A DNA stretch of 60,093 nt from Acidobacteriota bacterium (GCA_039931435.1 JBDTRY010000003.1:1-60093); one strand, 5' to 3'. Positions 4,595-32,194 are shown, counted from the stretch's first letter. Numbers and translations: made by a program. Notes: generated by a model from the sequence alone, not told the origin.

Positions 4595-6535
4595 TCAGGG
4601 GTGCCAGCGGAGGTACACGCCGTAGCGGCTGGCATCGAACTTTCCGTATGACGGAGAGGGTTCGTCATATTTGTCGCGATCCCATTCGACCGCGACCCCT
4701 GTCTTCGACTTGAAGTCGTACGTGAGGCGAAGGCGATAGCGGTCCATGTCGAAGGGAGTCGTTCCGCTATTCTCGAATCGTCCCAGGCTGGTGTCGAGTG
4801 AGAACGGGCCGCGCAGGAAGCTCACGCCGCCTTCCCGCGCTTTGCCGTTTTCGCTATGAACCGACTCGTCGATGCTGAAGTTTTCCGGATGCCGGAAGCT
4901 GATGTTGCTGTCAGCTCGGAACTGCGAGAGGGATCCCCGCAGCCGCAACCAGGCCCTCGGCGCCACTTCAACGTCGCCGCTATATTGGCGGATTCGCGCA
5001 TCGTAACCGGCCTCGGGCCGGTCGTTGCTTTGATTGGTGCGCTCCGCGGTGAGGCCGGCGCGGAAGAAGTCCTTCGGCGAACTCCACGCTCCGCGAACGC
5101 GGACGCGATCACGATCGAGAAAATCAGTCCGAAAGACGGGATTGTCAGCATTGTCGGTGCGCCAGGCCGCGCCGAGCATGAGGCCGGACTGTCTAAACGT
5201 GCCGCTGACATCGAACGTATGCACGCGTCGGTCGAACTGGCCTTCCTGAGCGCCCGGCACAACGATTTCCGAGAGGTCCGGCGAAACCTTGACGTCCTGT
5301 TTCGATTCCCGATATTCACCACGAAGAGCAAAGGGTCCCAGGGCCCGTGCGGACACTGAGGCGTTGAGGACATCCTCGTTGCGGTCCAGGGAGCTGGACG
5401 CCTTCAGGATGGTCTCGAGGTCGCGCCGGTCTACCCCTCCGAAGGTGATGCTCTGAAGAAAAATCGTGGTGATGAGCGCTGAGCCGTCCAGCTCGCGATG
5501 CTCTTTCTGAAAACCAGCGGACACGTCGACGTTCGGATATACGGTGATTTCCGCCCGCCCGCCTCCGCGCCAGGTGGTGTTTTTTGCCGAGGAGCTGCCT
5601 TGCTCAGAGATCCCCGTGAAGAAGCGGCTGATGGGAAATGAAATGAACGTCCCGGCCGCGTTCTCGCTCTCGCTGCCGTCGGAGTCAGCGGCGAAGCGGA
5701 CGTAGTTGCCGATCAGGCGGATGCGCGTCAGTGGCTGGCCCGTGATGTAGAAATTCGTAAAGGGTGTGTCGACGTCGGTGCGGTCGGTGCGGCTGATGGT
5801 CTGGGCGCTGACGGGTTGGTCGAGGATGGATCCGGGATTGTTGCCGGCTCCCGCTCCGGAAGCGAGCGAGAGTGAATCAGTTCCACGAAAACTTCGCCAG
5901 CCCTGCGTCAGCTGACCCTGGACAGATCCGAAGTGAAATGATGCGCCGGCCCGGAGCTCGCGGTCCCGTTCCTTCAGATTGTTACTGAGGCGGAACTCGT
6001 CCTGCCCGAGGTTGTACGTTGTTGTTCCGGGACCATGGTTGTCGTTCCATGTGTAGCCGACGAACGGTACGATGGCTCGGTCCGGCAGCAGTTCCAGATC
6101 GACGTCGAGCATTCTGCGCGTGCGTTCGTAGGTGTGCTGTCCCGGGACGATACCCTCACCAAGCAGGGGATTTGCGAATCCGGGCAACGCACTGAATGCG
6201 TTTGTGGAGCGATACCCTACGCGCAGGTGATAGCGGCGGCTCTTTTCTGCTTCGATGCGAAGCGAGCCGGCCGGACCGGCTCCAAGGTCGCTGACATCGA
6301 CGCGGAAGCGGTCCATGAACGTGGTCCTGCCACTGAAATCGGACGTGGCCAGAGTGAAGTTGCGGATGAGCAGGCCGTCCCGCTCGTTGATCTGGGTTCG
6401 GTACATGTCCTCACTGCCTTTGAGATCGAGCCAGCGGTAGCCGATCTCGAGATCGAACGGCACCGTTTGCGCCTGGGCAGTGAAGGCGACCGCAACGACC
6501 GTTGCAGACAGCAATGTGGTGAGGATTCGTCTCAT
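4595..6535 (-). CDS. MtrB/PioB-like outer-membrane beta-barrel porin
   Basis: Signal peptide, alternating beta-strand pattern, C-terminal YGVYLRWHP, directly downstream of an MtrA-type decaheme. Confidence 0.8.
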   Translation of the reverse strand: MRRILTTLLSATVVAVAFTAQAQTVPFDLEIGYRWLDLKGSEDMYRTQINERDGLLIRNFTLATSDFSGRTTFMDRFRVDVSDLGAGPAGSLRIEAEKSRRYHLRVGYRSTNAFSALPGFANPLLGEGIVPGQHTYERTRRMLDVDLELLPDRAIVPFVGYTWNDNHGPGTTTYNLGQDEFRLSNNLKERDRELRAGASFHFGSVQGQLTQGWRSFRGTDSLSLASGAGAGNNPGSILDQPVSAQTISRTDRTDVDTPFTNFYITGQPLTRIRLIGNYVRFAADSDGSESENAAGTFISFPISRFFTGISEQGSSSAKNTTWRGGGRAEITVYPNVDVSAGFQKEHRELDGSALITTIFLQSITFGGVDRRDLETILKASSSLDRNEDVLNASVSARALGPFALRGEYRESKQDVKVSPDLSEIVVPGAQEGQFDRRVHTFDVSGTFRQSGLMLGAAWRTDNADNPVFRTDFLDRDRVRVRGAWSSPKDFFRAGLTAERTNQSNDRPEAGYDARIRQYSGDVEVAPRAWLRLRGSLSQFRADSNISFRHPENFSIDESVHSENGKAREGGVSFLRGPFSLDTSLGRFENSGTTPFDMDRYRLRLTYDFKSKTGVAVEWDRDKYDEPSPSYGKFDASRYGVYLRWHP

Positions 6536-6546
6536 CTCAGCCTCGC

Positions 6547-7557
6547 CTACTTCAGCAGTTGCGGATCGCGGTTGGAGCCGTGGACGGCAACGTGACAGGT
6601 CGTGCAGTTCTGAAAACGCGGGCTGCTGAGGTTATGAAACGACGGCGGTTGGGACCCCAGCGTATCGCCACCGATGGGCGAATGACATTCGATGCAGAGC
6701 TGCGCGACCGTAGCTCGTTTGAGCTGTTTCGGGTTCGAGGAACCGTGCGGCTCATGGCAGGTCATGCAGTCCCCGGCGGCCAGCGCGCCGTGCTGGAAAA
6801 CAAAGGGGCCACGCTTATCGGCATGGCAGGACAGACAGGGCAGCTCACCGGCACGGGTCCTGCGCAGGCTTTCTCTCCCCGGCATTCCGTGCGGCTCGTG
6901 GCACGATGAGCATTCCATTCCGCCCCGCCCGATCCGGTGAGCGAAGGGCTTGTTGCGCATCGAAGCTACCTGGGTCATGTGGCATGTGTCGCAGAGGGCC
7001 ATCTCCCGTTTTACCAGCAGATGCGGCGAGTGCGGGTCCGCAGCGTGAATGGCGTGGCAGGTCAGGCAATTGACCGCCGTTGAATTCGCGTGCACGCCCG
7101 CGTGACGGGAGACCTGGTCGGTGCTGACGTCGTGACAGGACAGGCAGGTTTTGTTCGCGCCCGTCACTCCCACCGGTTTGTAGATCTTGTCCGTTTCGCC
7201 ACCGCTCTCGATATGCGCTTGGCCGTCACCGTGACAGGTCTCACAGACCGCATTGGGAATCTCGCCGTCTTTCACCTTGCCATGACCATGCGGGTTCGAG
7301 CCGAACGTGGCCATGGCGTCATGGCACTGCGTGCAGGCAGGGAGCGCTTCCGCTTCACCAGCAGAAGCCGGCGTCGCTTCGGGAGTCGCCTCCGGCGAAG
7401 CCTCGGGCGAGGGCTGTTCGGCGGGCGCGGCCGTCGTGGTTTGCGGCTGTTCCGTGGGAGTGGGAGCGGGAGTTGTGGATTGCGGACCGCTGGCGCACAG
7501 CCCCGGCACGGCGAGACAGAGCACGAACGCGAGGGGCCCGATCCAACGGTGTCTCAT
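6547..7557 (-). CDS. MtrA/DmsE-family periplasmic decaheme cytochrome c
   Basis: 10 CxxCH counted; KRGPFVFQH and CHxxHGSN motifs. Start reassigned to ATG 7557 (MRHRWIG, RBS AGGAG). Pro/Thr/Glu-rich linker follows the signal peptide. Confidence 0.92.
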   Translation of the reverse strand: MRHRWIGPLAFVLCLAVPGLCASGPQSTTPAPTPTEQPQTTTAAPAEQPSPEASPEATPEATPASAGEAEALPACTQCHDAMATFGSNPHGHGKVKDGEIPNAVCETCHGDGQAHIESGGETDKIYKPVGVTGANKTCLSCHDVSTDQVSRHAGVHANSTAVNCLTCHAIHAADPHSPHLLVKREMALCDTCHMTQVASMRNKPFAHRIGRGGMECSSCHEPHGMPGRESLRRTRAGELPCLSCHADKRGPFVFQHGALAAGDCMTCHEPHGSSNPKQLKRATVAQLCIECHSPIGGDTLGSQPPSFHNLSSPRFQNCTTCHVAVHGSNRDPQLLK

Positions 7558-7575
7558 TTTTACTCCTGGACGCTG

Positions 7576-7599
7576 TGGGGGGACCTTGCGGTCCCCCCA
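7576..7599 (-). promoter_or_regulatory. Intra-operon stem-loop between mtrC-like and mtrA-like genes
   Basis: Perfect 10-bp stem TGGGGGGACC/GGTCCCCCCA, GCAA tetraloop on the transcribed strand, no U-tract. Confidence 0.55.
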
Positions 7600-7610
7600 T
7601 GCGCTCGACT

Positions 7611-9752
7611 CTATCGGGCGTGAACGCGCTCCACCGACCAGTCCTTGCCGGTGCCGTGGCAGGTTGCACAGGCTTCGGCGGGAGTGGTGCCTCCGGGGAA
7701 GGTGACCGTATTCAGGAACGCATGTGCGGCCGCATCTCTGTTGTCGTGGCAGCCCAGACAGGAAGCTGTGGCCGGACCCTGCGGACTGAAGTAGTCGCGA
7801 AGGGTGGTGACGGATCCGATCCTGGTGGGAAGAGGCAGCGTGTACGAAGTGCCGACGTGGCATTTCGCGCAATTGCGGAGATCACCAGGGAAGCGCACTT
7901 CGTTGAAGTTGTTCCGGCTGCCGCCGAACCCATAAATGGTGAAGTCCTGCGTCAGTTCCTCACCTTTATGAATCTTGTGGATCATCCGGTTGAAGGAGAT
8001 GGACTCGGCCGGTCCCTCCGTCGCCGGCCGCTGGGACTGATCGCCCTCGGTCGGATTGTGGCAGATGACACACTCCTCGGTGTTCATTCGCTGACCACCG
8101 TGAACTGCCAGCCGGTTGTGGCACTGGTTGCACTGTGCTGTCGAGACCACCATGCGGCGTGGGTCCACCGCCCCGGTCACGGCTACGTACTTGATGGGAT
8201 TGAAGGCCGCTTCCCGGACGGCAATGTCGGCCTTGCCGTCGGCGCGTTTCAGCGAGACGTTGCGGTAGATGTCGGCGCTGACCGTCCAGGTTCCACTGGC
8301 GTCGGCCGGTAGCGCATTGTTGAAGGTGTAGGAGGTGGTCCCTGTGGCCGCGTCGAAGACGGCTTTTGCCAGCGCGCTCTCGCGGAAGTACTTCGAGTAG
8401 CTTGAGGTCGGTCCACCAACGATGGGCGCGAACGTGGAGAGCTTCGTGCCATCGACCGCCGTTCCATCACCGTTCGTGATTTTGAACACGACCGTAGGCT
8501 TCTTGCCGGCGGCCATGTCGCTCACGCTGACGATCGTGGCCGAGATTCCCTTGAGCTGTTTCGATTTTTCAGGAATCGTATGCGCACCCTTGATGGAAGC
8601 GTCGAACTCCTGGCCGCTGTCAGGAATGTGGCAGGAGGCGCAGGCGCTGTCGTTCAACTGCGGGCCGCCCGGGTGATTTATCCCGGTGACCCAATCGATG
8701 TCGTCGTGGCACGAGCCGCACGCGGCGCGGCTGGGATAGGTGTACCAGGCGTTCGATTGCGCTCCCTTATTGTTCGGATCCGAGCCTTCGTGGCAGGTCG
8801 CGCAATTACGGATGTCCTGAGGGAAGGCCACGGTCGAGAAATCCACAACCGTCTGATTGAAGCCGATGATCTGGTAGGGAGTGCCGGCGATTACGCTGGG
8901 GAGGTTCTCGCCGCGGTGGATCTTGTGGGCCATGACCTTCATGTCCACTGTGTTGCCCGTATCAGGATCGGTGGTCTGCGGCTGATGGCAAAGCGCGCAC
9001 AACTTCACGTCCTGCCGGGCGCCGCCATGAGCGGAAAGCGGATCGTGGCAGCTGTTGCAGGTCGTGGCGGTGCGCATCTTGTCCCATGTCTCAGTGACCG
9101 GGGTGCCGTCCGGACGGAAGTCATATTCGACGTTGGCGACGTAGCTCTTTTTCAGTTCTTCGTCGATCCCCGGGACTGCGTTGAGCGCGCGTGTGGCGTA
9201 GATGCCGAGCGTATGGGTCTTCGTCACATCGAAGCCCGCGGGGAGTGCCGTTTTGAATGTGTATTTGACGTGCCCGGTCTCCAGGTCCATAAAGGTTCCC
9301 CCCGCGTCTGTGCCGGCCTGCATTGCGGACACGCCGGGATGGGGGCTGGACGGCGGGGTCGTCTGCGTCCGTACGGTGTACGACGTGTATTGCCGCGTCG
9401 CAGGGTCGTACCACGCCAGGATGAAGCTGATGGAGATCGCTCCCGGAGTGATCTTGCCGAGGCGGTCGAGCGGCTGATCGAGGGAATCCGTGATCGTGAG
9501 ATCGACCACCGGTCTGCGGTCGGAGCCGATCACGACGGAATTGACCTTGATCTTCAAACCCGGGCGGATGAATTCAATGGACTCCGGTGACAGGAATGAC
9601 TCGATCTCCGTTGAGGCAAACCCAGTCCTGTTCGGGTCCGACGGAGGCGCAGCCCCACGTCCCCGGCCCGTGGTCTCAGTGGCCAGCAGCGTGCTCGCGA
9701 ACAGCGCGGCCATCGATACCACGAGAACGGCGCGGTTCATCCCTGACTTCAT
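7611..9752 (-). CDS. OmcA/MtrC-family decaheme cytochrome c
   Basis: 10 CxxCH in two blocks of five, each preceded by a heme-free domain; LSAHGG/LAVHGG and MxHKIH motifs; start ATG 9752 after GGAGG. Confidence 0.9.
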   Translation of the reverse strand: MKSGMNRAVLVVSMAALFASTLLATETTGRGRGAAPPSDPNRTGFASTEIESFLSPESIEFIRPGLKIKVNSVVIGSDRRPVVDLTITDSLDQPLDRLGKITPGAISISFILAWYDPATRQYTSYTVRTQTTPPSSPHPGVSAMQAGTDAGGTFMDLETGHVKYTFKTALPAGFDVTKTHTLGIYATRALNAVPGIDEELKKSYVANVEYDFRPDGTPVTETWDKMRTATTCNSCHDPLSAHGGARQDVKLCALCHQPQTTDPDTGNTVDMKVMAHKIHRGENLPSVIAGTPYQIIGFNQTVVDFSTVAFPQDIRNCATCHEGSDPNNKGAQSNAWYTYPSRAACGSCHDDIDWVTGINHPGGPQLNDSACASCHIPDSGQEFDASIKGAHTIPEKSKQLKGISATIVSVSDMAAGKKPTVVFKITNGDGTAVDGTKLSTFAPIVGGPTSSYSKYFRESALAKAVFDAATGTTSYTFNNALPADASGTWTVSADIYRNVSLKRADGKADIAVREAAFNPIKYVAVTGAVDPRRMVVSTAQCNQCHNRLAVHGGQRMNTEECVICHNPTEGDQSQRPATEGPAESISFNRMIHKIHKGEELTQDFTIYGFGGSRNNFNEVRFPGDLRNCAKCHVGTSYTLPLPTRIGSVTTLRDYFSPQGPATASCLGCHDNRDAAAHAFLNTVTFPGGTTPAEACATCHGTGKDWSVERVHAR

Positions 9753-9854
9753 TCGAGCCTCCATAAACGGCCTCTGGCTTCCATTTTCACTTTTGGAGCG
9801 TTTGGAGCGTATTGTATCCGAAGTGGCCCGTCGCTGCCCGCCAACACGCACACA

Positions 9855-9870
9855 TGTGACTGCCGTCACT
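9855..9870. promoter_or_regulatory. CRP/FNR-family-like site upstream of the mtrC-like gene
   Basis: TGTGA-N6-TCACT; TACAAT -10-like hexamer on the minus strand at 9811-9816. Confidence 0.4.
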
Positions 9871-10030
9871 TCAGCAGGTGAGTGACAACAACTCTGGCTC
9901 ACCAGGAATGGCGATATATTAGAAAGCCTGTCTGGCTCGCAGTCGCACGGTTCTTGTTCTCATTTTCTCATTCCCATCCCGGCCGTTTCTGCTCCGCTTT
10001 GTCAAAACGACTAAAGAAAGGCTTTACCTC

Positions 10031-10594
10031 ATGAGCGCAGATCAGCAGCAATCACAAATGTCACCCAAGCTCGCGTTCCTCCTGGGAGCCGGGACAGCGG
10101 TGGTCCTGGCGTTGATCGTAGTCTTCGCAATGAGAGATACGCGTCCGGACTCTTCGTCGGCTGATGCTGGTTCGCCTTCAGTGAACAGATCGGTGGCGCT
10201 CCCATTCGAAACGAGCGCCGGAACTACGAGCGGAGCAATCGATCCCGCTCTGAACGCTGATCAGCCTGGCGTGATCTCCGGCACGATTCTTCTTGACGAG
10301 GCCGCGGCGAAGACCGTCTCCGGAAAAGTGATCGTGTTCGTCATCGCCCGCGCCGGCACCGGCAAAGGGCATCCCGTCTTTGCCAAGCGTCTGGACGTGA
10401 CCTCGTTTCCGGTGGCGTTCTCGCTCGGCGCCCGCGACTCGATGATGGCCCAGCCGCCGTCCGATCACCTGCGGCTGGAGGCGCGGATCGACCGAGACGG
10501 CGATGCCATCACCCGGGAGGCGGGTTCGCCCTCGGCAACCATCGAGTCCGTGCCTCTCGGCGCTCACGACGTTACGCTGAAGTTGCGGCTCTGA
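10031..10594 (+). CDS. Membrane-anchored protein with CcmI/CycH C-terminal Ig-like domain
   Basis: N-terminal TM helix; ISGTI...VFVIARA...PVFAKRL...FPVAFSL...DSMM...EARIDRDGDA matches the CcmI C-terminal pattern; no TPRs. Confidence 0.65.
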   Translation: MSADQQQSQMSPKLAFLLGAGTAVVLALIVVFAMRDTRPDSSSADAGSPSVNRSVALPFETSAGTTSGAIDPALNADQPGVISGTILLDEAAAKTVSGKVIVFVIARAGTGKGHPVFAKRLDVTSFPVAFSLGARDSMMAQPPSDHLRLEARIDRDGDAITREAGSPSATIESVPLGAHDVTLKLRL

Positions 10595-10682
10595 CGTTTC
10601 ACCAATGCTCGAAAGCGCCGATTGCCCCGATCTGCTCGAAACCACGATTACCGGTGGTCTCGCCATCCCGAAGGAGTAACGA

Positions 10683-12164
10683 ATGAACGACGCCCCACGG
10701 AAACCGAGTCTGTCCCGGAACGTCATCAGTGCCATCGGCGCATTGATCGTGTTCGTCGCTCTGATGAACACGATCTTCCTGATCTATATAGACAGCCGGC
10801 AGACTCATGGAAGCCCGTACCTGGGTATTCTGGCCTGGATCGTCGGTCCCGCCATTCTGTCTTTCGGACTCATTGTCTACATGGCCGGACTGCTGATCGA
10901 GAGACGCCGCCGTCGTATGCGGGCGCCGGATGACATTCCGCAATACCCGGCTATCGACCTGAACGTCCATCGAACACGAATGATCGTGGCCAGTATCTTT
11001 GCCGGCGTCATCCTCTTCGTCACCGCCAGCGTCATCGGCAGTTTTCAGGCCTTTCACTACACCGAATCGGACGAATTCTGCGGAACGGCATGTCATCAGC
11101 CGATGCATCCTGAGAACATCGCTCATCAGATCTCACCACACGCCAGGGTCGCTTGCGTTGCCTGTCACGTGGGAGGGGGAGCGGAGTGGTACGTCCGTTC
11201 AAAAATCAACGGCACCCATCAGCTCATGGGTGTGATCACAGGCAACTACAAACGTCCCATCGCCACGCCGATCAACAATCTCCGGCCGGCGCGGGACACC
11301 TGCGAGCAGTGTCACTGGCCGGAGAAAAACTTCGGAGATCAACTGAAGGTCTTCAGCCACTACCAGTACGACGAGCAGAGCACGCCAACGGAAGTGCGTC
11401 TCCTGATCCACGTTGGAGGCGGTAGCCCCGCCACGGGTGTGGCCCCCGGCATTCACTGGCACATGAATCTCGCAAACAAAATCGACTATGTCGCTGTGGA
11501 TCCTCAGCGTCAGGACATTCCATGGGTTAGGATGACCGACCGCAACGGCAAAGTCACGGATTACGTTCGAGAGGATTCGAAGGTGACGCCGGCGCAGATT
11601 GCAAACGCGCGGCAGATGGACTGTTTGGACTGCCACAGCCGTCCGGCCCATAACTACCTCTCACCAGACCGTGCCGTGGACCGGGCTCTGCTCACGGGAT
11701 CGATCGATCGCTCGCTGCCCTACGTCAAGCAGCAGGCCGTGAACATTCTCTCGAAGAACTATGGATCGACAGCGCAGGCAGTGAAGACCATCGGTAGGGA
11801 CTTCCCCGCCTACTACAGCAAGACCTACCCGGCCGTTTACGCTGCCAGGCGAGCTTCCGTGGACCACTCCATGAAAAGCCTTCAACGGATCTTCCAGTTC
11901 ACACGCTTCCCTGAGATGCGCGTCGACTGGCGGACACACCGGAACAACCTCGGTCACATGTACTCGCTCGGTTGTTTTCGCTGCCACGACGACCAGCACG
12001 TAAGCAAGGACGGCAGGCGAATCAGCAAAGAATGCTCGATCTGCCACGAAGTGCTGAGCGCTCCTGAAGGGAAAACGGCTGAGTTCCAGCATCCCGTGGA
12101 CCTGGGAGACCTCCGCGACATGGTCTGCACCGATTGCCACACCGGCGGAGATATGACCCAGTAG
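10683..12164 (+). CDS. ImcH-like NapC/NirT-family membrane multiheme cytochrome c (putative quinol dehydrogenase)
   Basis: Three N-terminal TM helices, YTESDEFCGTACH (CX3CH) plus six CxxCH = 7 hemes, 493 aa. Confidence 0.82.
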   Translation: MNDAPRKPSLSRNVISAIGALIVFVALMNTIFLIYIDSRQTHGSPYLGILAWIVGPAILSFGLIVYMAGLLIERRRRRMRAPDDIPQYPAIDLNVHRTRMIVASIFAGVILFVTASVIGSFQAFHYTESDEFCGTACHQPMHPENIAHQISPHARVACVACHVGGGAEWYVRSKINGTHQLMGVITGNYKRPIATPINNLRPARDTCEQCHWPEKNFGDQLKVFSHYQYDEQSTPTEVRLLIHVGGGSPATGVAPGIHWHMNLANKIDYVAVDPQRQDIPWVRMTDRNGKVTDYVREDSKVTPAQIANARQMDCLDCHSRPAHNYLSPDRAVDRALLTGSIDRSLPYVKQQAVNILSKNYGSTAQAVKTIGRDFPAYYSKTYPAVYAARRASVDHSMKSLQRIFQFTRFPEMRVDWRTHRNNLGHMYSLGCFRCHDDQHVSKDGRRISKECSICHEVLSAPEGKTAEFQHPVDLGDLRDMVCTDCHTGGDMTQ

Positions 12165-13128: not shown

Positions 13129-13434
13129 TTACTTCTTCAGGCTGCGCACGAAGGCGATGACAGCCTCCATATCCTGGGCGGAAAGTTTGGAGGGTTTCAT
13201 CTTTCCTTTACCTTCGGCGAGGATTTTCGTCATCTCCACGTTGGTGAGATTCTGAACCTCCGGCGTGCCGAGATCCTTCAGCTTGAGATTCTTCCCGATC
13301 GTCGTCTGTCCGCTTCCGTCCGCCCCGTGACAGGCCGCGCATTTCGCCTTGTAAATGGCCGCGCCATCGGCGAATGCGGCCACGGGCAGAGCCAGCGCCA
13401 GCAGCACCGCACAGGTCAAAGTTTTCTTCTTCAT
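13129..13434 (-). CDS. Monoheme class I cytochrome c (paralog of 4196-4516)
   Basis: MKKKTL signal peptide, CAACH, GKGKM; shares CHGADGxGQTTIGK with the first copy; RBS GAGGAG. Confidence 0.92.
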   Translation of the reverse strand: MKKKTLTCAVLLALALPVAAFADGAAIYKAKCAACHGADGSGQTTIGKNLKLKDLGTPEVQNLTNVEMTKILAEGKGKMKPSKLSAQDMEAVIAFVRSLKK

Positions 13435-13518
13435 CAATGACTCCTCTTTCGTTTTATATTCAAACATTCTTGCCCCACACTGTATTTCGTCGGCAGGTGA
13501 TTAAACACGGCAGATTCA

Positions 13519-14165: not shown

Positions 14166-14927
14166 TCACCACGCCACGAGCGCAGGCTGCTGCTGCGAGA
14201 GCCAGTCCTGAAGGCCTTCTTTCGTGTCGACAAGGAGCATGCCGCGCATGCGGTAGTGGCCGAGCCCGCATAGCTGCGCGCAGGCGATCTCCCACTGTTC
14301 GCCGTTGTTGGTGCGCGTTGGCGTGAAGTGAATGGGAATCTCCATGCCTGGAACGGCATCCTGGTTGACGCGCATGACCGGAAGCTTGAAGCTGTGAATG
14401 ACGTCCTTTGACGAGATGTGAATGACCACCGGACGATTCACCTCCAGGTGAAGCTCGTTCAGGGTGTTCAGGTCGTCCGTGGCATGCGGATCCTTCGCAT
14501 CGAGCCCGAGGGGATTATCCACCGAGACGAGGGTCACATCCCGCCTGCCGAAGATGCCGTCGGGACCCGGATAGTGGACATTCCACGCAAACTGCTCGGC
14601 CACGATCTGGATCTCCAGCGGCTTCACATTGCCGGCGAGCGGCTGAGCCCAACGCGTCCATGCGGGGATCGAGTATCCGAACAGGTCAACGAGCTCGACG
14701 GCGAACACCGCGATGATGAGATAGACCGGCCAACGCGAGCGCATTCCCCCGTAACTCACGGGCTGGTGCCCACCGGCGCGAAAACGAATCAGCACGTAGA
14801 TGATGTATGCCGCCCAGAAAACGAACAGAATCACGATCATCCAGTGGATTTCGATCAGCAACTTGTCGATTTCCCATCCGTGGCGGGAGTAGTCGGGCGG
14901 CATGTGTCCGAGCAGAAAGTGTTTCAA
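14166..14927 (-). CDS. coxB: Cytochrome c oxidase subunit II (CuA)
   Basis: Two TM helices, EQFAW, DVIHSF, CAQLCGLGHYRM; probable TTG start overlapping the upstream TGA. Confidence 0.9.
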   Translation of the reverse strand: MKHFLLGHMPPDYSRHGWEIDKLLIEIHWMIVILFVFWAAYIIYVLIRFRAGGHQPVSYGGMRSRWPVYLIIAVFAVELVDLFGYSIPAWTRWAQPLAGNVKPLEIQIVAEQFAWNVHYPGPDGIFGRRDVTLVSVDNPLGLDAKDPHATDDLNTLNELHLEVNRPVVIHISSKDVIHSFKLPVMRVNQDAVPGMEIPIHFTPTRTNNGEQWEIACAQLCGLGHYRMRGMLLVDTKEGLQDWLSQQQPALVAW

Positions 14928-15202
14928 GGCCGACCCCCTTCGATCAACACGAACGGCTCCGGTTTCATGGAGAACTCCCGTGATCGGCGCCAAAAGCTCC
15001 AGAAGAGGGTGGCGAATCCGATCTGGACGAGCCCGACGACAGCCAGGAGAAAGAGAATGGCGTAGTTCATCGACTTCGCCGCCTGGGAGCCGGCGGCCGC
15101 CCCGAAACAGACCGGGCAGGCCATTGCGGCGGGCGCGAACACCAGCAGTGCCACGGCGGCGAGCGCGGCGACGGTCGGGATGCGCAGGGCCGGTCTGGTC
15201 AT
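14924..15202 (-). CDS. Small oxidase-operon membrane protein with CPVC motif
   Basis: Signal peptide, ACPVCFG, one TM helix; coupled to both neighbours by overlaps. Confidence 0.7.
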   Translation of the reverse strand: MTRPALRIPTVAALAAVALLVFAPAAMACPVCFGAAAGSQAAKSMNYAILFLLAVVGLVQIGFATLFWSFWRRSREFSMKPEPFVLIEGGRP

Positions 15203-15396
15203 AGATTCATCAGCTTTCGGAAAACTCGTCCCGCATACGCGACGAGAGCGACCCCACAGAACACGAACATGATCGCCAGAACGAGCGCGCTGCTGTTCCT
15301 GGTGGCGAGAAACTCTCGAAAGCCCCAGACGGCCACGAAGACCGACAAGCCGATCGACACGGTAATGAAGACGATGTGAAAGTGACGAAGCCCCAT
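15199..15396 (-). CDS. Small two-TM oxidase-operon protein
   Basis: MGLRHFHIVFITVS..., two hydrophobic helices, ATGA overlap with the next gene. Confidence 0.7.
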   Translation of the reverse strand: MGLRHFHIVFITVSIGLSVFVAVWGFREFLATRNSSALVLAIMFVFCGVALVAYAGRVFRKLMNL

Positions 15397-15400
15397 GCTG

Positions 15401-15808
15401 TCACCGTCCGATGGCATCGACGAAGCCCTGCCACGGTCCCCAGAGGAGAAAGGAAAAAAAGAAGAGCGTCACGCCGAGAACCGAATAGATCAGTTTCTTC
15501 TCCGAGAGTAGATGCATGAAGAATCCGGCAACCAGAAATCCTTTCGTGCAGGCGATGACCAGGGCGATGGCGATGGCGGTGTGCACCGGCATTTTCAGTC
15601 CGTAGCACGCCCAGACCGTGAGCGCGGTCAGCGCGGCGAGGGCGCCAAAGACGATGAGATAGACGCGCATCTCCCGCCGGATCTCCTCGGGAGTGTGATG
15701 AAGATTCGGGTCGTGCACTCCGCCGTGGGTATGCTGATCTTCAGCGCGGCTCGCCGGCAGCGGCATGCCGTCGGACGGGGCGTTCGGTTGAATCACTTGT
15801 TCGCTCAC
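15401..15808 (-). CDS. Cytochrome c oxidase subunit IV family protein
   Basis: YLIVFGALAALTALTV...KGFLVAGFFMHL; GTG start after AGGAGG. Confidence 0.85.
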   Translation of the reverse strand: MSEQVIQPNAPSDGMPLPASRAEDQHTHGGVHDPNLHHTPEEIRREMRVYLIVFGALAALTALTVWACYGLKMPVHTAIAIALVIACTKGFLVAGFFMHLLSEKKLIYSVLGVTLFFFSFLLWGPWQGFVDAIGR

Positions 15809-15816
15809 CGGTCCTC

Positions 15817-16440
<624 letters not shown>

Positions 16441-18306
16441 TCAGACCTCCTTCTGTGCCACGGTCGTCTTCGGCAACATCCCGCCGCTCAGGGCAGGGGC
16501 CGGACGCAACTCGAGATTCTGGGGAAGATAGTCCGCAGTCTGGTAGTCCGGCGAGTTGTACTCGTAAGGACCGCGGTAGACGATCGGCAGCACCTCGAAA
16601 TTCCCGTGGGCCAGCGGCGGTGAGGTGGCGGCCACCCATTCGAGCGTGGTGGCTTGCCACGGATTGTCGTCGACGTTCTTCTTGTGCCGCGCGGCCTGGG
16701 CCACGTTCCAGACGAAATTCACGATGAACGGAATCTGCGCGGCGAGGAGGCACCAGGCGGAGATAGAGATGAACGGATTCGTCGCTGCGGCCGCCGCCTT
16801 CGCATGCGCGTACTGCAACCCGCCGTCATACATGCGTCGCTGCACCCCGGCCAGACCCTGGAGAAACATCGGAAGGAACACGCCGTTCATGAACAGGAAC
16901 GAGCCCCAGAAGTGCACTTTTCCCAGAGTGTCGTTCAGCTTTCGCCCCGTGACTTTCGGGAACCAGTAGTAGATGCCTGCGAACAAGGCGAAGATCGTCC
17001 CCGGCGCTACGATGTAGTGAAAGTGGGCGATGACGTAGTAGGTGTCGTGCAGATGGAGGTCCGTGGTTGCCAGGCCAAGGGGAAGCCCGGTCAGCCCGCC
17101 GAGCCCGAACATGGGAAGGAAGGCGACGGCAAAATACATCGGGGTCGTCATGCGTATCGAGCCACCCCAGAGAGTGACGAGCAACACCGTCAGGATGATC
17201 ACCGAGGGGATGGAGATGATCATCGTCGTGGTCTGGAAGAAGCCGCTGACCATCGCTCCCATGCCGGTGATGAACATGTGGTGCGCCCAGACCACGAAGG
17301 ACATGAAGCCGATCCAGAGCACCGAGTAGACCAGCCAGCGATATCCCCATATGGGCTTGCGGGTGTTGTTGGCGATGACCTCGGTGATGATTCCGAGCGC
17401 CGGCAGGATCAGGACGTATACCTCGGGATGAGCCAGGAACCAGAACAGGTGCTGCCACAGCAATGGATTTCCACCGCCGGCGACCGCAAGTCTTTCACCG
17501 CTGACAACCAGGTCTGCCGGCAGGTAGAAGCTCGTCCCCGCCACGCGATCCATGAACTGCAGGATGGCGCCCACCTCGAGTGCGGGAAAGGCGAGCAGCA
17601 GCAGGAACGATGTGACGAACTGGGCCCAGACGAAGAACGGCAGGCGCATGAAGGTCAGCCCCTCGGCCCGAAGCTGCACGATCGTAACGATGAAGTTGAT
17701 CGAGCCGAGGAGAGAGGATGTGATCAGGAAAACCATTCCCACGATCCAGAAGGTCTGACCACGGGATGCAATATCCGCGAGCGGAGGATAGGAGGTCCAG
17801 CCTGAAGCGGCGGTTCCCAGCGGAAGGAAAAAGCTCGCCAGCATGATCATGCCGCCGGTGAAGTACGCCCAGTAGCTGGCCATGTTGAGCTTGGGGAATG
17901 CCATGTCCGGCGCGCCGATCTGCAGCGGCACGATGTAGTTTCCAAAGGCGCCGACCGCCAGCGGGACAATGGCCATGAAGACCATGATCGTGCCGTGCAT
18001 CGCGCCCAGCTGGTTGTAGCCCTCGGGAAGCATGATTCCGCCCGGCGCGCGCGACTCACCGAGAATTCTGAACAGACGGAATGCATGTCCGGGCCAGCCG
18101 AGCTGCAGACGCATCAACAGCATCAGGCTGAAGCCGAATAGCAGAAATACGAGCGCCGTCACTCCATACTGAATCCCGATCCACTTGTGATCCGTGGAGA
18201 ATACATAGCGGCGAATCCAGGATAGATGATGCTGCCCTCCGGCTTCGACTGCCGGTGCCCCGCCGCCGGAAGGCGAGAGCGCGGGGTCATGGGGTGTCTC
18301 AGACAT
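16441..18306 (-). CDS. coxA: Heme-copper oxidase subunit I, A family
   Basis: STDHK, HGTIMVF, PDMAFP, HPEVY, WAHH, HDTYYVIAHFHY, RR. Confidence 0.95.
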   Translation of the reverse strand: MSETPHDPALSPSGGGAPAVEAGGQHHLSWIRRYVFSTDHKWIGIQYGVTALVFLLFGFSLMLLMRLQLGWPGHAFRLFRILGESRAPGGIMLPEGYNQLGAMHGTIMVFMAIVPLAVGAFGNYIVPLQIGAPDMAFPKLNMASYWAYFTGGMIMLASFFLPLGTAASGWTSYPPLADIASRGQTFWIVGMVFLITSSLLGSINFIVTIVQLRAEGLTFMRLPFFVWAQFVTSFLLLLAFPALEVGAILQFMDRVAGTSFYLPADLVVSGERLAVAGGGNPLLWQHLFWFLAHPEVYVLILPALGIITEVIANNTRKPIWGYRWLVYSVLWIGFMSFVVWAHHMFITGMGAMVSGFFQTTTMIISIPSVIILTVLLVTLWGGSIRMTTPMYFAVAFLPMFGLGGLTGLPLGLATTDLHLHDTYYVIAHFHYIVAPGTIFALFAGIYYWFPKVTGRKLNDTLGKVHFWGSFLFMNGVFLPMFLQGLAGVQRRMYDGGLQYAHAKAAAAATNPFISISAWCLLAAQIPFIVNFVWNVAQAARHKKNVDDNPWQATTLEWVAATSPPLAHGNFEVLPIVYRGPYEYNSPDYQTADYLPQNLELRPAPALSGGMLPKTTVAQKEV

Positions 18307-18340
18307 GCACCTGTCCTCCTAGTTGCGCGTTCGCATTGTT

Positions 18341-18359
18341 TGTCACGCCCAGCGTGACA
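18341..18359. promoter_or_regulatory. Perfect palindrome in the cox / cyc2-like divergent region
   Basis: TGTCACG-N5-CGTGACA about 35 bp upstream of coxA. Confidence 0.4.
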
Positions 18360-18551
18360 CGCAGGCGCATCCGCCGGATCACCCGGCGGCACTCGGACCG
18401 CCGTCGGGGCGTGCAACGCGGCGGTGCAAAAAATTTGCGGTTTTCCATTGCTAAAACAGGCAGGTAGAATATAGTAGATGAAATTGGATTCTGGGGTCAA
18501 CGAACTTTTTGTGAATCGGCATCATCACCGTCAAGGAGATGGGAATCACGC

Positions 18552-19250
18552 ATGTTCAAAAAAATAAGTCACGTCCTGGCATTGGCTGTCTGTTTCGTAT
18601 TCACCACTGTCGCGGCTCATGCGGCGACGCTCGTGGCACACGTAGAGTTGAAGAGTCCGGTGCATCCCGCGCACATGATCAACACCGCGGCCGATCCGTA
18701 CTGCAATACGGTTCACAAGACCGACAAGCTCATGACCGAGGACCAGATGGCGAACCCGAACGGAACGATGGGCAATACGTTCGTCTTCATCAGTGAAGGG
18801 GTCACCGGCAACTACGCGCCCCCCAAGACTCCGGTCGTCCTGGACCAGCAGGGATGTCATTACGTCCCGCATGCGTTCGGCGTCATGGCCGGGCAGCCCA
18901 TCGTGATCAAAAACAATGACGCGACTCTGCACAACATCCACCCCCTCCCGAAAGTGAATACGCCGTTCAATATCGGCATGCCGATGAAGGGCATGACCCA
19001 GACCCGCGTGTTCCCCAAGCCGGAAATGCCGTTCCACATCAAGTGCGACGTTCATCCCTGGATGTCGGGGTTCGTCGGCGTGTTCGCCAATCCGTTCTTC
19101 GGTGTGTCGAACGACAAGGGAATCGTGGAAATCGACAATCTCCCTGCCGGGACGTACACGGTGGAATCCTGGCACGAGCGGTTGGGACCGAAGTTTCAGA
19201 AAGTCACCGTCGGAGGTTCTGACCGCAAAGAGGTCACCTTTACGTATTAA
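18552..19250 (+). CDS. Periplasmic cupredoxin-like / carboxypeptidase-regulatory-like protein
   Basis: Signal peptide, DQQGCHYVPH, LHNIH, KCDVHPWM (possible His/Cys/His/Met Cu site), PAGTYTVESWHE. Confidence 0.75.
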   Translation: MFKKISHVLALAVCFVFTTVAAHAATLVAHVELKSPVHPAHMINTAADPYCNTVHKTDKLMTEDQMANPNGTMGNTFVFISEGVTGNYAPPKTPVVLDQQGCHYVPHAFGVMAGQPIVIKNNDATLHNIHPLPKVNTPFNIGMPMKGMTQTRVFPKPEMPFHIKCDVHPWMSGFVGVFANPFFGVSNDKGIVEIDNLPAGTYTVESWHERLGPKFQKVTVGGSDRKEVTFTY

Positions 19251-19341
19251 AGCCCTCGTGAACTGCTCCTGGTAAGAGCGCGGCCATACCGGCCACGCTT
19301 CCGCTCCATCAATCGATCTCGGGTATAAAGGAGACGAACCG

Positions 19342-20640
19342 ATGCGTTGCGTTACTCGTCCATGGGCACGGTGTTGGGGCCTTCTGCTCCTGCTGCTGTT
19401 CCTCATTCCCACTCCAGCCTTCTCCATCCCTGCATTCGCACGCAAGTACCAGGTCCGATGCACGGCCTGCCACGAGGCCTGGCCCATGCTGAACGACTTC
19501 GGACGTGCTTTCCGGGACAATGGATACCAGATGATGATGGGCAAGGACGGTCCGACCGCCACTCCGGTGGGCTACTGGCCGGTTGCCTTCCGCCTCGTTC
19601 CGAGCTTCGAGCGGGACACGATCAACCACCAGGAGACCGACCAGGGCGTCAAGACGCTGACCACCAGCAATGGGTTTGGCGTCGGAGCCTTCGACGTCTT
19701 GAGCGCCGGCACGCTCGCTCCGAACATGTCATTCCTCTTCGTACCGGCCTACGAGGGGGGCGAGTGGGAGGTCGAATCCGCGTGGGTGCGCTTCGACAAT
19801 CTCGGGAAATCCTCCTGGCTCAACCTGAAACTGGGGCATCACGAACTGGATCTGCCCCGCTCGGCGCATCGACCCTTGAACCAGACAGGCGCCGGGTTTC
19901 TCGTCTACAGCTACCATCCACCGGGCTCCATCTCGGAATTCGACATGGGGGGCAACCAGGACGGCGTGGAATGGGTAGGCCACGACAAGGGGAGCCTCAA
20001 CCGCGCTGCGGTTTCACTGTTCAGTGTGGACGGATCGCCAGGTTCAAGGAGCGCATTCAACACTCCGGGCGTGTACTTCCACCTCATTCATGAGTTTCTT
20101 CCAAAAAGCCGCGTCGTCTCGGAGGCCAAGATCGGTGCCTTCGGCGCCGACGCCAGTTGGCCTACGACGTTCCTCACCTCGGACGGCGACCCGATCGAGG
20201 GCTCGGGAACTACGTTGAAGCATTCGACTCGGTACGGTCTCGAGGGACATGTTCTGTTCGGGCCGAATGTAACTCCCTTCCATGCCCTCGTGGTCCTTGC
20301 TCATGGGTCGGACAATCGCAATCTCATCGAGGGAGCGACGCGGAATGCCACGTGGGACGGAGGCTTTGTCGAGCTGGCCTGGACGCCCCGGCTGAAGACC
20401 ACGCCATTTTTCCGCTACGACTGGATCTCGAACGGGGACCAGTCAAATTCCGAGTTGGCGAGCAACGCAAACGATCAGACCCAATACACCATCGGCATCC
20501 GCCATACCCTGAACTACTCGACGCGGGCGGAGTATGCGTTGCACGGCGAGTACTCGGCGCTTCGAGCTCGAGGCCTGACGGCGGATGAGCCGACCGTCAC
20601 CTCTACCAGCCTTTTCTTCGGAGTTGATTTCGCTTTCTGA
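19342..20640 (+). CDS. Cyc2-like fused monoheme cytochrome-porin
   Basis: Signal peptide, IPAFARKYQVRCTACHEAWPMLNDFGRAFRDNGY, then a beta-barrel-like region ending in Phe. Confidence 0.8.
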   Translation: MRCVTRPWARCWGLLLLLLFLIPTPAFSIPAFARKYQVRCTACHEAWPMLNDFGRAFRDNGYQMMMGKDGPTATPVGYWPVAFRLVPSFERDTINHQETDQGVKTLTTSNGFGVGAFDVLSAGTLAPNMSFLFVPAYEGGEWEVESAWVRFDNLGKSSWLNLKLGHHELDLPRSAHRPLNQTGAGFLVYSYHPPGSISEFDMGGNQDGVEWVGHDKGSLNRAAVSLFSVDGSPGSRSAFNTPGVYFHLIHEFLPKSRVVSEAKIGAFGADASWPTTFLTSDGDPIEGSGTTLKHSTRYGLEGHVLFGPNVTPFHALVVLAHGSDNRNLIEGATRNATWDGGFVELAWTPRLKTTPFFRYDWISNGDQSNSELASNANDQTQYTIGIRHTLNYSTRAEYALHGEYSALRARGLTADEPTVTSTSLFFGVDFAF

Positions 20641-20650
20641 GGAGGATGCG

Positions 20651-21439
20651 ATGAAGAATTTCAACCGTCGATTGCTCCCCAGCGCACTGGCGTTGTTGCT
20701 TTCGGCAAGTTCGCTCCCAACGGCCGATGCTGTGGCTCCCCCCGGCGACCCGGTCCAGGGGAAAGTCGTCTACGACCGGTATTGCGTCTCCTGTCATGGT
20801 GTCGAGGGAGACGGCCGCGGAGAGGGTGCAGGCTACATCTTTCCCAAGCCACGTGACTTCCGGCAGGGAACTTTCAAGTGGCGCTCAACCCCGTCCGGGG
20901 CGCTTCCATCCGTTGCCGACCTCGACAAAACCATTCGCGACGGCTTGTACGGCACGAACATGCCCACCTGGTATGTTCTTGGCGAACGAAACCGGATGAA
21001 TGTCATCTCCTACATCATGACATTCTCTCCGCGGTGGCAGAGCGAAGAGATTCCTGCGGCGATCACGATCCCGGCGGAGCCGCCCTTGACCAGCGAATCG
21101 GTCGACGCTGGCCGCGCGCTTTTCGAAAAGCTTCAGTGCGCGCAATGCCACGGGGACGCAGGGAAAGGCGATGGGCCATCCTCGCATGAGCAGAGAAACG
21201 ACTGGGGTGATCCGATCACCCCTGCCGACCTCACCGTCGGCCATTTCAAAGGCGGGGGCACGCCGTCCGACATCTACCGCGTCTTCATGACCGGCCTGAA
21301 CGGTGCACCGATGCCGTCCTTCGCCGACTCCATCCAGCCGGCGGAAGCGTGGGACCTCGTTCATTTCATCGAGAGCCTCAGCGCTCACGCGGCACCCAAC
21401 CCGCAGTTCGGTGTCGATGGGGTGCCCATCCACCGCTAG
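20651..21439 (+). CDS. Periplasmic diheme class I cytochrome c
   Basis: RBS GGAGG, signal peptide, CVSCH...PRDF...MP and CAQCH...PADL...MP domains. Confidence 0.9.
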   Translation: MKNFNRRLLPSALALLLSASSLPTADAVAPPGDPVQGKVVYDRYCVSCHGVEGDGRGEGAGYIFPKPRDFRQGTFKWRSTPSGALPSVADLDKTIRDGLYGTNMPTWYVLGERNRMNVISYIMTFSPRWQSEEIPAAITIPAEPPLTSESVDAGRALFEKLQCAQCHGDAGKGDGPSSHEQRNDWGDPITPADLTVGHFKGGGTPSDIYRVFMTGLNGAPMPSFADSIQPAEAWDLVHFIESLSAHAAPNPQFGVDGVPIHR

Positions 21440-21931: not shown

Positions 21932-23827
21932 TCACGCCGACGGTGTTCGAATAGCGGCAGTCCGTGAGCCAATAACATCGAGATCGCGCAGAGCCATTCG
22001 GGGCACCGCCACGCGTAAAGCGTTGAGCACCGCCAGAACGTCGATCACTTCCTGCGCGATCGCGCCTGGCACCGGCGAGAGCCAGCCAGCGGCCGCGGCC
22101 AGCATGCCGATCATGCTCAGGCTCATGCCGCCGATCGCGCTTTGCAGGGCGATGGTGCGCATCCGCCGGCCGATGTGGATCAGCTCATCGACCTCGGCCA
22201 GCGAGGGCTCCAGCACCACCGCGTCGGCGGCTTCCGCGGTGATGTCGTTGGCGTGCCCGAAGGCGACGCTGACCGTGGCCGCCTCCATTGCCGGCGCGTC
22301 GTTGATGCCGTCGCCGAGGAAGAGGGTCGGGGCCTTCGCCGTCTCCTCGCGTACGATGGCCAGCTTTTCTTCGGGGCTCGTTCCGGAACGCACGATCTCA
22401 ATGCCGACCAGCGCCGCGAGATGCTGCACCTCGGCCTCGCGGTCGCCCGACACCAGCATCACGCGGGTGACCTGGTGGCGCGGAACGAGGTGCCCGACGA
22501 ACGACCGGCTTTCATCTCTCGGAACGTCCTGAAACCGCAGCGTGGCCGCGTATTCGCCGTTGCGCAGAATGATGCACTCCATGCCGGGAGCGGCCGGCGG
22601 CAATTGCGCAGATATTGCGGTCAACGCGATCTGTTTCCGGCCGGTGATCTCGATCACGTCCTCGGCGATTCTGCCACGCAATCCGTGGCCCGGCTGTTCG
22701 CTGATCTCAGTGACGGCGATGGGCACGATTCCCTCCGCGCGCGCCGCCTCGAGAATGCTCGTGGCCAGAGGATGCCGCGAGTACTGCTCGAGACTCGATG
22801 CCATCCTTAGCACGCCCTCGCGCGTCAACCCGGAGGCGCAAAGGACGTCCGTCAGCGAAGGTTTTCCGTAGGTCAGAGTCCCGGTCTTGTCGAAGATGAT
22901 CGTACGGCAGCGATCGATCCGTTCCAGCATTGCCGGATTCTTGATGATGATTCCCCGGGCCGCCGCCAGCGAGATCGCGCCGAGGATTGCAACCGGAATT
23001 GCCAGGAGGAGCGGACAGGGCGTAGCGATGACGAGGACGGAAAGGAACCGCCGAGGATCGCTGCTGAGGATCCATGCGGCGGCGGCAACGACCAACGCCA
23101 GCAGCGTGTACCAACCGCCGAGGCGGTCGGCAATCCTCCGAAGCTGCGGCCGTTGCGCCTCCGCCTGCTCCATCACTTGAACGATCTTCGCGTAGCGTGA
23201 GTCGACGGGAAGCGTCGTCACGACGATCGTCATCGCATCAGAACCGTTGATCGCCCCGGACAAGACCGCCGAGCCGGGCGCCTTTCCGATCTGAAACGGC
23301 TCGCCGGTCAGATACGACTCGTCCATTGCTCCGTGACCTTCCACGACCGTTCCGTCCGCCGGACAGGTTTCATGCGGCAGCACGACGAGGCGGTCGTCGA
23401 TCCGGACGTCGCCTGTGGGGACCTCCACAATCCCTGTATCCGTCAACCGGTGCGCCTGGCTTGGCAATCGTTTCGCGAGTGCGGAAAGGACGGCGGACGC
23501 TCTGCGCATGGCGTAAAGCTCGAGCGCCGTTCCACCGGCCATCATCAGCACGATGATCGCGCCGGCCAGATATTCGCCGAGGATGGCCGCAGTGACGATG
23601 CATAGGCCGGCCAGCGCGTCGGCTCCGACCTCGAGTGCGGCCAGCTTCTTCAGCAGATCGAAGAGCAATGGAGTGCCGGCGATGAGCACCCCGATCAGCG
23701 GCCAATCGCTGTGGTGTGCGTGACACAGAAATCGCAGAACGAGATAAGCGGCGATGCCGAGGAGCGAAGCAGATGCGATCCATGTCTCCTTGGATGGCAT
23801 GTTCCTATCGCGCGGCAGCGCACTCAT
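21932..23827 (-). CDS. Heavy-metal P-type ATPase, P1B-5-like
   Basis: TGE, TPCP, DKTGTLT, HP, GDGIND; QSAIGGMSLSMIGM and PVPGAIAQEVIDVLAVLN fit P1B-5 TM motifs; no hemerythrin domain. Confidence 0.88.
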   Translation of the reverse strand: MSALPRDRNMPSKETWIASASLLGIAAYLVLRFLCHAHHSDWPLIGVLIAGTPLLFDLLKKLAALEVGADALAGLCIVTAAILGEYLAGAIIVLMMAGGTALELYAMRRASAVLSALAKRLPSQAHRLTDTGIVEVPTGDVRIDDRLVVLPHETCPADGTVVEGHGAMDESYLTGEPFQIGKAPGSAVLSGAINGSDAMTIVVTTLPVDSRYAKIVQVMEQAEAQRPQLRRIADRLGGWYTLLALVVAAAAWILSSDPRRFLSVLVIATPCPLLLAIPVAILGAISLAAARGIIIKNPAMLERIDRCRTIIFDKTGTLTYGKPSLTDVLCASGLTREGVLRMASSLEQYSRHPLATSILEAARAEGIVPIAVTEISEQPGHGLRGRIAEDVIEITGRKQIALTAISAQLPPAAPGMECIILRNGEYAATLRFQDVPRDESRSFVGHLVPRHQVTRVMLVSGDREAEVQHLAALVGIEIVRSGTSPEEKLAIVREETAKAPTLFLGDGINDAPAMEAATVSVAFGHANDITAEAADAVVLEPSLAEVDELIHIGRRMRTIALQSAIGGMSLSMIGMLAAAAGWLSPVPGAIAQEVIDVLAVLNALRVAVPRMALRDLDVIGSRTAAIRTPSA

Positions 23828-32175: not shown

Positions 32176-32194
32176 CTTAGTTTTCTCCGGGGTA

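Follow-up and report, generated by a model that had tools for sequence, protein, structure and literature searches.

The closest described relative of the locus reported here is the rus operon of Acidithiobacillus ferrooxidans, in which the genes run in the order cyc2-cyc1-cup-coxBACD-rus (PMC13741234, in its available text). In neutrophilic Zetaproteobacteria and Gallionellaceae, Cyc2 passes electrons to a periplasmic cytochrome and from there to a cbb3 or aa3 oxidase, and in Leptospirillum an outer-membrane Cyc2-family cytochrome is likewise paired with a periplasmic cytochrome (Cyt572/Cyt579). Here we describe a rus-like gene set in a 60,093-nucleotide stretch of the genome of an Acidobacteriota bacterium (GCA_039931435.1, JBDTRY010000003.1:1-60093; hereafter the window, meaning this whole stretch at its full length). 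At positions 14166-21439, genes for a Cyc2-type cytochrome-porin, a dihaem cytochrome c and a cupredoxin, together called the trio below, face an operon for a haem-copper oxidase, so that the locus, like the rus operon, unites a Cyc2-type porin, a dihaem cytochrome, a cupredoxin and a CuA-bearing aa3 oxidase. We think it probable that the plus-strand trio is an electron-uptake front end that feeds the facing, dedicated oxidase and thus forms a wire from the outside of the cell to O2, with Fe(II) as the likeliest electron donor.

A map of the open reading frames (ORFs) of the window, combined with Pfam and NCBIfam scans, places coxI, coxIII, coxIV, a gene for a small CxxC protein and coxII on the minus strand and, across a gap on the plus strand, the genes for P0001 (the cupredoxin), P0002 (the Cyc2-type protein) and P0003 (the dihaem cytochrome c). 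An earlier note on this DNA, made from the sequence alone, had put an outer-membrane haem protein, a periplasmic dihaem protein, a putative copper protein and a CuA oxidase around one shared 245-bp control region; our coordinates and family assignments agree with the placement of all four components, and the ORF coordinates give a divergent intergenic region of 245 bp at 18307-18551. Four sigma-70-like sites, two per strand, can be found in this region as consensus matches, against 0.2 expected by shuffling; they are compatible with back-to-back promoters, as candidates only. A ribosome-binding site (AAGGAGA) precedes position 18552. Because the intergenic DNA of the window and that of the other divergently arranged locus in our dataset (L002) gave no meaningful alignment, the region is not conserved at the DNA level and no conserved operator can be proposed.

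P0002 (19342-20640, plus strand; 432 amino acids) is predicted to be a fused monohaem cytochrome-porin. The available text of PMC8406198 gives the marks of Cyc2 proteins as a single CXXCH motif, an upstream PXFAR[Q/K][T/Y] motif (long form AXPXFAR[Q/K][T/Y]) that is regarded as exclusive to Cyc2, a PXL motif that follows the CXXCH at four residues, a minimum length of 365 amino acids, and 16 predicted strands forming an OprO/OprP-like porin. In P0002, a hydrophobic leader running to AFS/IPAF and read as a signal peptide is followed by P30-AFARKY36, three residues, the only CxxCH motif (C40-TACH44, near the N-terminus), three further residues and P48-ML50, in which P48 stands at H44+4 and is invariant across 91 sequences. 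The protein ends in DFAF, in keeping with a family whose members end in DFAF or DFAY. Its structure model, built from a 91-row alignment, has a predicted local distance difference test (pLDDT) score of 89, a predicted template modelling (pTM) score of 0.86 and 16 strand elements between residue 81 and the C-terminus. A Foldseek search with this model returned 224 matches in the PDB at E <= 0.001 with 16-strand porins on top, among them OprP (2o4v) and OprO (4rjw), the same templates that are named in PMC8406198. P0002 thus carries a signal peptide and the CXXCH, PXFAR and PXL motifs at the length and with the predicted barrel published for the family, and by these motif, length and fold features it classes as Cyc2-type.

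P0002 matched no Pfam or NCBIfam family, and a search of PDB sequences with the Cyc2-like profile returned nothing, which leaves it with no solved relative by sequence. An Atlas search gave only unnamed clusters, mostly from Acidobacteriota, and a search with five distant members returned no named Cyc2 but only unnamed or 'hypothetical' proteins of metagenome-assembled genomes (MAGs), including those of Krumholzibacteria, Eisenbacteria, Ignavibacteriaceae and Armatimonadetes. When P0002 was used as a single-protein query against the genome collection, zero relatives were recovered. A diverse alignment of its relatives (A1) was too variable for patterns to be read, and a closer alignment (A2) was usable.

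P0003 (plus strand) is a periplasmic dihaem cytochrome c with two CxxCH motifs. Its ORF is open from 20585, and its likely start lies at 20651, 11 nucleotides past the P0002 stop, which gives a normal signal peptide beginning MKNF and a coding region of 20651-21439. The structure 1h1o_A, which we take to be the Cyc1 of A. ferrooxidans, matched the P0003 profile with an E value of 0.039 over about 40 residues, and P0003 is not a dihaem cytochrome of the c4 (Cyc1) type found in the rus-type operon. A weak match to the NCBIfam family 'cytochrome 579' (E 3.5e-12) reached 46 bits against a cut-off of 280. The closest solved relative is 6h5l_B, with an E value of 4e-57 for the single sequence over about 210 residues and of 3.8e-78 with a 40-row profile; this chain is Kustc0457, the dihaem partner of a hydroxylamine oxidoreductase (HAO)-like nitrite reductase in Kuenenia (PMC8042395, in its available text). 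Most P0003 homologues (alignment A6) also contain two near-invariant cysteines outside the haem motifs (FKCRS and RFKCG), at which positions the protein of the window has W and G.

We predicted the complex of P0002 (residues 29-432) with the dihaem protein (residues 28-262), both supplied as alignments, alongside three controls. The pair scored 0.72 (runs of 0.74, 0.70 and 0.72) and the best of the three controls 0.14; this mark was attained by 116 of 157 solved complexes and by two of 215 mismatched pairs. The runs share at least 85% of their contacts, with a partner pLDDT of at least 83. On the P0002 side, the confident contacts fall at residues 36-42 (around C40-H44), 52-56 and 64-68 and at the turns at 217, 308-311, 351 and 393-395; on the P0003 side, they fall at 36-48 (around C45-H49, the first haem motif), 58-63 and 98-110, a stretch that includes the invariant M104-P105 and W107. 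The haem sites of the two proteins are therefore predicted to face each other at the periplasmic mouth of the barrel. Recall of a similar complex is unlikely to explain the score, since P0002 has no solved relative by sequence and no complex of this kind has been solved. If right, the predicted docking would identify a specific protein, P0003, as the first electron acceptor of a Cyc2 protein in the periplasm.

P0001 (18552-19250, plus strand) is identified as a periplasmic type-1 copper protein from profile, fold and ligand matches, and we found no Pfam or NCBIfam family above cut-off for it. An amicyanin-like cupredoxin domain is followed by a C-terminal carboxypeptidase-regulatory-like domain, to which a strand at the N-terminus may also belong. 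Residues H127, C165, H168 and M171 are invariant in all 46 aligned homologues, as are C51 and C102, and the ligand loop has the amicyanin-like spacing Cys-x2-His-x2-Met. Profile searches matched the Nitrosopumilus cupredoxin 5fc9 (E 5.6e-5) and amicyanin (E 9e-4), and the structure model (pLDDT 88) recovered amicyanin, the extra cupredoxin domain of NirK, plastocyanin and pseudoazurin in Foldseek, with a resemblance to the extra cupredoxin domains of the NirK-type proteins 9cck and 6hbe. With the His-Cys-His-Met set on a Greek-key beta-sandwich, P0001 has the marks of a type-1 copper protein, and a copper site is predicted. Rusticyanin is absent from its 32 profile matches at E <= 1 and from the Foldseek matches listed (ranks up to 50); the rus pairing of rusticyanin with an AcoP-type cupredoxin was accordingly not found in this comparison, for which AcoP may not be in the PDB.

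The facing operon encodes an oxidase that can be classed from its subunits as aa3-type (A1 family) and CuA-bearing. The translation of coxI (16441-18306, minus strand; PF00115, E 1e-133, 447 bits) has the sequences AHPEVY, of which HPEVY presumably marks subtype A1, and WAHHMF, with the HH motif of CuB. It is followed on the same strand by coxIII (15817-16440; CyoC/CtaE-type matches, E 1e-31, under the equivalog cut-offs), by a coxIV-like subunit (15401-15766; PF03626, E 1e-10; TIGR02229, 41.3 bits against a cut-off of 37.25), by a small membrane protein of 92 amino acids (14924-15202) whose translation has a CPVC motif, and by coxII, the CuA subunit (14166-14993; PF00116, E 4e-9; TIGR02866, 111 bits, below cut-off), for which the Met at 14903 is the likely true start. 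The CPVC protein, between coxIV and coxII, matched neither a Pfam nor an NCBIfam family, and a 51% identical tblastn match to it occupies the same position in L002. In coxII, the CuA ligand pattern reads HSF...CAQLCGLGHYRM, that is, H...CxxxCxxxHxxM, and a haem c domain is missing. Since the oxidase bears CuA, it would be fed by periplasmic donors and is not a quinol oxidase. The minus strand also has, some 700 bp downstream of coxII, a gene for a monohaem class-I cytochrome c of 112 amino acids (13129-13467), which had a match in none of the 80 related loci described next.

To place the locus among its relatives, one genome per species was scanned, which gave 581 matches to P0002, and the best 80 loci were retained with 7-kb flanks; 64 of them have at least 6 kb on either side and are referred to here as full-flank loci. 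Gene content was determined by tblastn with the proteins of the window, supplemented by a second tblastn for cbb3-type oxidases and by annotation of 46 neighbouring ORFs from loci that had appeared to have no oxidase (L005, L008, L020, L032, L049, L053, L058 and L075). Most of the 80 loci belong to Acidobacteriota, with Thermoanaerobaculia (65% identity) ahead of unclassified Acidobacteriota and Terriglobia; the others include a few Gammaproteobacteria/Steroidobacterales MAGs, a MAG of Gemmatimonadaceae and one labelled 'delta proteobacterium'. The dihaem gene was present in 79 of the 80 loci and the cupredoxin gene in 73, and each of the two was found in all 64 full-flank loci. We detected coxI in 51 loci, coxII in 51 and coxIII in 49, and 51 of the 80 have an aa3-type oxidase at a distance of no more than 7 kb; the Cyc2-linked CoxI of Terriglobia is 39-43% identical to that of the window. 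In a further 13 loci (L004-L015 and L058; for example, L005:9230-12386), a cbb3-type oxidase sits directly downstream of the trio, and annotation of L005, L008 and L058 showed the trio followed by CcoN and a FixO/cytochrome c fusion. A haem-copper oxidase of either family is thus found within 7 kb in 64 of the 80 loci and in 55 of the 64 with full flanks, counts that rule out chance adjacency of trio and oxidase.

This linkage persists through changes in gene arrangement. In 46 loci, cyc2, dihaem, cupredoxin, coxII and coxI follow one another on one strand, which is the gene order of the rus operon (PMC13741234, available text); L003 and L016 have the order coxI-III-IV-II-cyc2-dihaem-cupredoxin; and the window and L002 are divergent. 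The 46 loci are joined in gene order by L033, in which the first two genes run together. The resulting frame (L033:6947-9358, 803 amino acids) was considered as a cyc2-dihaem fusion and rejected: out-of-frame residues have cost the barrel its DF(A/D)F signal while the dihaem signal peptide is kept, and an assembly frameshift is the most likely explanation. Because the linkage has been kept through rearrangement and a change of oxidase family, it argues strongly for a shared function, and since oxidases only accept electrons, a trio that is linked to them would carry electrons inward. The earlier note had proposed an outside-to-O2 wire analogous to the rus system but built from different periplasmic families, and this proposal is supported by our results on three counts: a 16-strand porin is predicted at high confidence (pLDDT 89, with porins in Foldseek), the oxidase linkage is conserved across three gene arrangements and two oxidase families, and the carriers are a Kustc0457-type dihaem cytochrome and an amicyanin-like cupredoxin without a rusticyanin match.

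Compared with the rus operon, the dihaem cytochrome of the window is of the Kustc0457 type and not Cyc1, the cupredoxin is amicyanin-like with a carboxypeptidase-regulatory-like domain, there is no rusticyanin gene, the oxidase operon is divergent and ordered coxI-III-IV-II, and the host is an acidobacterium known from soil and rhizosphere sequencing runs instead of an acid-mine acidophile. The locus is rus-like in its probable function and in layout, and the protein set that it shares with rus consists of Cyc2 and the oxidase. With the neutrophilic Cyc2 pathway, it shares the motifs and the predicted 16-strand cytochrome-porin, as well as the use of cbb3 by 13 of the 80 relatives; here, however, the oxidase is physically linked to cyc2, a linkage that we did not find described in the available texts on that pathway, and a conserved cupredoxin is part of the unit. 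Leptospirillum differs in that the match of P0003 to cytochrome 579 is far under cut-off, and in that cbb3 is listed as its terminal oxidase and no cupredoxin is listed in the available text of PMC10654088. In Kuenenia stuttgartiensis, Kustc0457 is built into an octahaem HAO-like nitrite reductase as a stable subunit (PMC8042395, available text), whereas its relative here is encoded with a porin-cytochrome and an oxidase. MtrCAB and MtoAB, like P0002, carry electrons across the outer membrane, but do so as separate proteins with decahaem wires and 26-strand barrels (PMC8406198, available text), where P0002 would be one polypeptide with one haem and 16 strands.

These results suggest the following route for electrons. 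P0002 would sit in the outer membrane as a 16-strand porin, with its single haem on an N-terminal head at the periplasmic mouth. A dissolved reductant, most likely Fe2+, would enter the pore and give one electron to this haem; Fe(II) is the most likely donor because all three biochemically tested Cyc2 proteins oxidise it (PMC8406198, available text). P0003 would dock on the P0002 head and on four periplasmic turns of the barrel, so that the electron could move from haem to haem, from P0002 to haem 1 and then haem 2 of P0003. From there it would reach CuA of the aa3-type oxidase, either directly or via the type-1 copper protein P0001, and the A1 oxidase would reduce O2 and presumably conserve energy.

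Several observations weigh against such a route. Within P0002, residue 28 is a Ser where the long-form motif has Ala, and three residues separate Y36 from C40 where PMC8406198 speaks of '5 amino acids upstream', a spacing that is possibly off by one given the uncertain way of counting in its available text. In alignments A1 and A3 of the family, H44 is the sole invariant position with a Met or a His, so that the sixth (distal) haem ligand is not evident from conservation. The authors of PMC8406198 caution, in the available text, that distant Cyc2 homologues may function otherwise, and the nearest solved relative of P0003 serves a nitrite-reducing HAO-like enzyme of anammox bacteria (PMC8042395, available text). 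Nine of the 64 full-flank loci have no nearby oxidase, and the 80 loci, being the closest of 581 and mutually related, are not independent draws. The sequencing runs that contain this DNA are soil and rhizosphere metagenomes, and no RNA run is among those listed for the stretch. None of five sampled genomes of the same family has a close copy (one weak match with E 6.6e-15, four with none), which makes the module accessory. The large subunit of RuBisCO was not found in a genome that is 82% complete, and the module would therefore supplement heterotrophy and not support autotrophy. Finally, an Mtr-type conduit, usually read as serving outward electron transfer, lies 8 kb from the module.

When the phylum was sampled evenly, 88 of 301 genomes (including that of the window) matched the Cyc2-like profile at E <= 1e-10; most of these match the cytochrome head only, and about ten are close over the full length. 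Among 20 Acidobacteriota loci with distant, head-only Cyc2-like paralogues (L084-L103), 11 have a P0001-like cupredoxin next to the paralogue, one has a clear dihaem homologue and one a weak coxII match, which suggests that the pairing with the cupredoxin is older or wider than the linkage to the oxidase. Elsewhere in the genome, on contig C14 at 32048-36376 (L082), lies a second oxidase operon of conventional type, coxII (374 amino acids)-coxI-coxIII-coxIV, whose CoxI is 34% identical to that of the window.

The same wiring could potentially serve another dissolved donor outside the cell, for instance Mn(II), Cu(I), the reduced quinones of humic matter or a metal in chelated form, which we regard as unlikely. 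Humic material is to be expected in soil and rhizosphere habitats, and the DNA is present in metagenome runs from both. A heavy-metal P1B-type ATPase of 631 amino acids (21932-23827, minus strand; TIGR01525, 487 bits against a cut-off of 346) adjoins the module; it has a TPCP motif in its membrane part and no N-terminal metal-binding domain, and we take the TPC motif to mark class P1B-5. Related ATPases flank the trio in 11 of the 80 loci, including an annotated case with an ATPase-cat_bd domain in L005, and whether this gene belongs to the module is uncertain. One P1B-5 member is described as Ni and Fe transport-related in a title in the reference list of PMC9388753, as available. In the available texts, a role in the Mn(II) lithotrophy of Ca. 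Manganitrophaceae has been proposed for Cyc2 homologues (PMC9040806), and what distant Cyc2 homologues do is called uncertain (PMC8406198). Against this, we saw no feature of the locus that is specific to Mn or quinones, and the three Cyc2 proteins with biochemical tests all oxidise Fe(II) (PMC8406198).

It is also conceivable, and in our view rather improbable, that the module is a protective sink that disposes of Fe(II), or removes O2, where oxic and anoxic zones meet, as a guard against Fenton chemistry and with little or no benefit for growth. The absence of a RuBisCO match, the patchy presence of the module in the family of the window, the presence of a second oxidase beside a housekeeping one and the TPCP-bearing ATPase next door are all consistent with such a role. 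The partner oxidases, however, are of the proton-pumping A1 and cbb3 types and would conserve energy whatever the purpose, and the protective and energetic roles are not mutually exclusive.

A third possibility, which we consider very unlikely, is that the Cyc2-like protein and an Mtr-like conduit export electrons to Fe(III) or other extracellular acceptors and that the adjacent oxidase is incidental. An Mtr-like extracellular electron-transfer cluster does occur in the window at 4595-12164, 8 kb upstream of the module, so that the window has outer-membrane electron conduits of two kinds that are no more than 15 kb apart. On the minus strand, it contains an OmcA/MtrC-family decahaem cytochrome (7611-9902; TIGR03507, 509 bits; PF22113), a DmsE/MtrA-family decahaem cytochrome (6547-7872; TIGR03508, 209 bits) and a protein of 646 amino acids without a family (4595-6535), which is a possible candidate for an MtrB-like barrel; on the plus strand, it contains a protein with a CycH Ig-like domain (10031-10594) and a NapC/NirT-type and c3-type multihaem cytochrome (10683-12164). 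The decahaem genes at 6547-9902 and the NapC/NirT-type cytochrome would suit outward flow, but the trio occurs with an O2 reductase in 64 of the 80 loci and with two unrelated oxidase families, no quinol dehydrogenase is seen inside the module, and Mtr-like genes are not among the features that are conserved with the trio in the loci examined. Elsewhere in the window, a protein of 454 amino acids (29769-31133, plus strand) has an ice-binding-like domain (PF11999, E 7e-61) and He_PIG Ig domains.

We give almost no credence to a nitrogen-oxide branch in which the two periplasmic proteins of the trio work for a nitrite or NO reductase whose gene lies at another place: it could draw on the role of 6h5l_B (Kustc0457) as partner of a nitrite-reducing HAO-like protein (PMC8042395, available text) and on the likeness of the cupredoxin to the extra domains of 9cck and 6hbe, but no N-oxide reductase was found in the module or among the 46 annotated ORFs of eight related loci, which include one NosD-like beta-helix protein (in L053), and the porin-cytochrome would be left unexplained.

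In conclusion, the reading that best accounts for the gene content, motifs, predicted folds and conserved linkage is an electron-uptake front end wired to its own oxidase, with Fe(II) as the likeliest donor. A broader proposal, to which we give somewhat less than even weight, is that the trio is a portable three-gene cassette that can be plugged into either an aa3 or a cbb3 oxidase; that many soil Acidobacteriota and some Gammaproteobacteria and Gemmatimonadota are unrecognised aerobic Fe(II) oxidisers; that the Cyc2 haem passes its electron to haem 1 of a stably docked partner; and that a rus-like wire has been built independently from non-homologous periplasmic parts.

Acidobacteriota are generally treated as organotrophs. 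They are counted among the commonest soil bacteria in the available literature, and unclassified Acidobacteriota MAGs appear among the iron oxidisers that were predicted by automated annotation in the available text of PMC13594681. A full-text search of the literature found no description of this operon in Acidobacteriota, with the proviso that supplements and figshare trees of Cyc2 papers may hold such sequences. The function of cyc2 outside known iron oxidisers has been openly doubted (PMC8406198, available text), and the constant trio, taken together with its linkage to an oxidase, would be a sharper genomic marker than cyc2 alone. If Fe(II) and O2 are indeed the two ends of the wire, the classical Gallionellaceae would be joined by many more iron oxidisers on root surfaces and at the oxic-anoxic boundaries of soils. 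The layout of this locus points to respiration on dissolved iron as a possibility for many soil bacteria.

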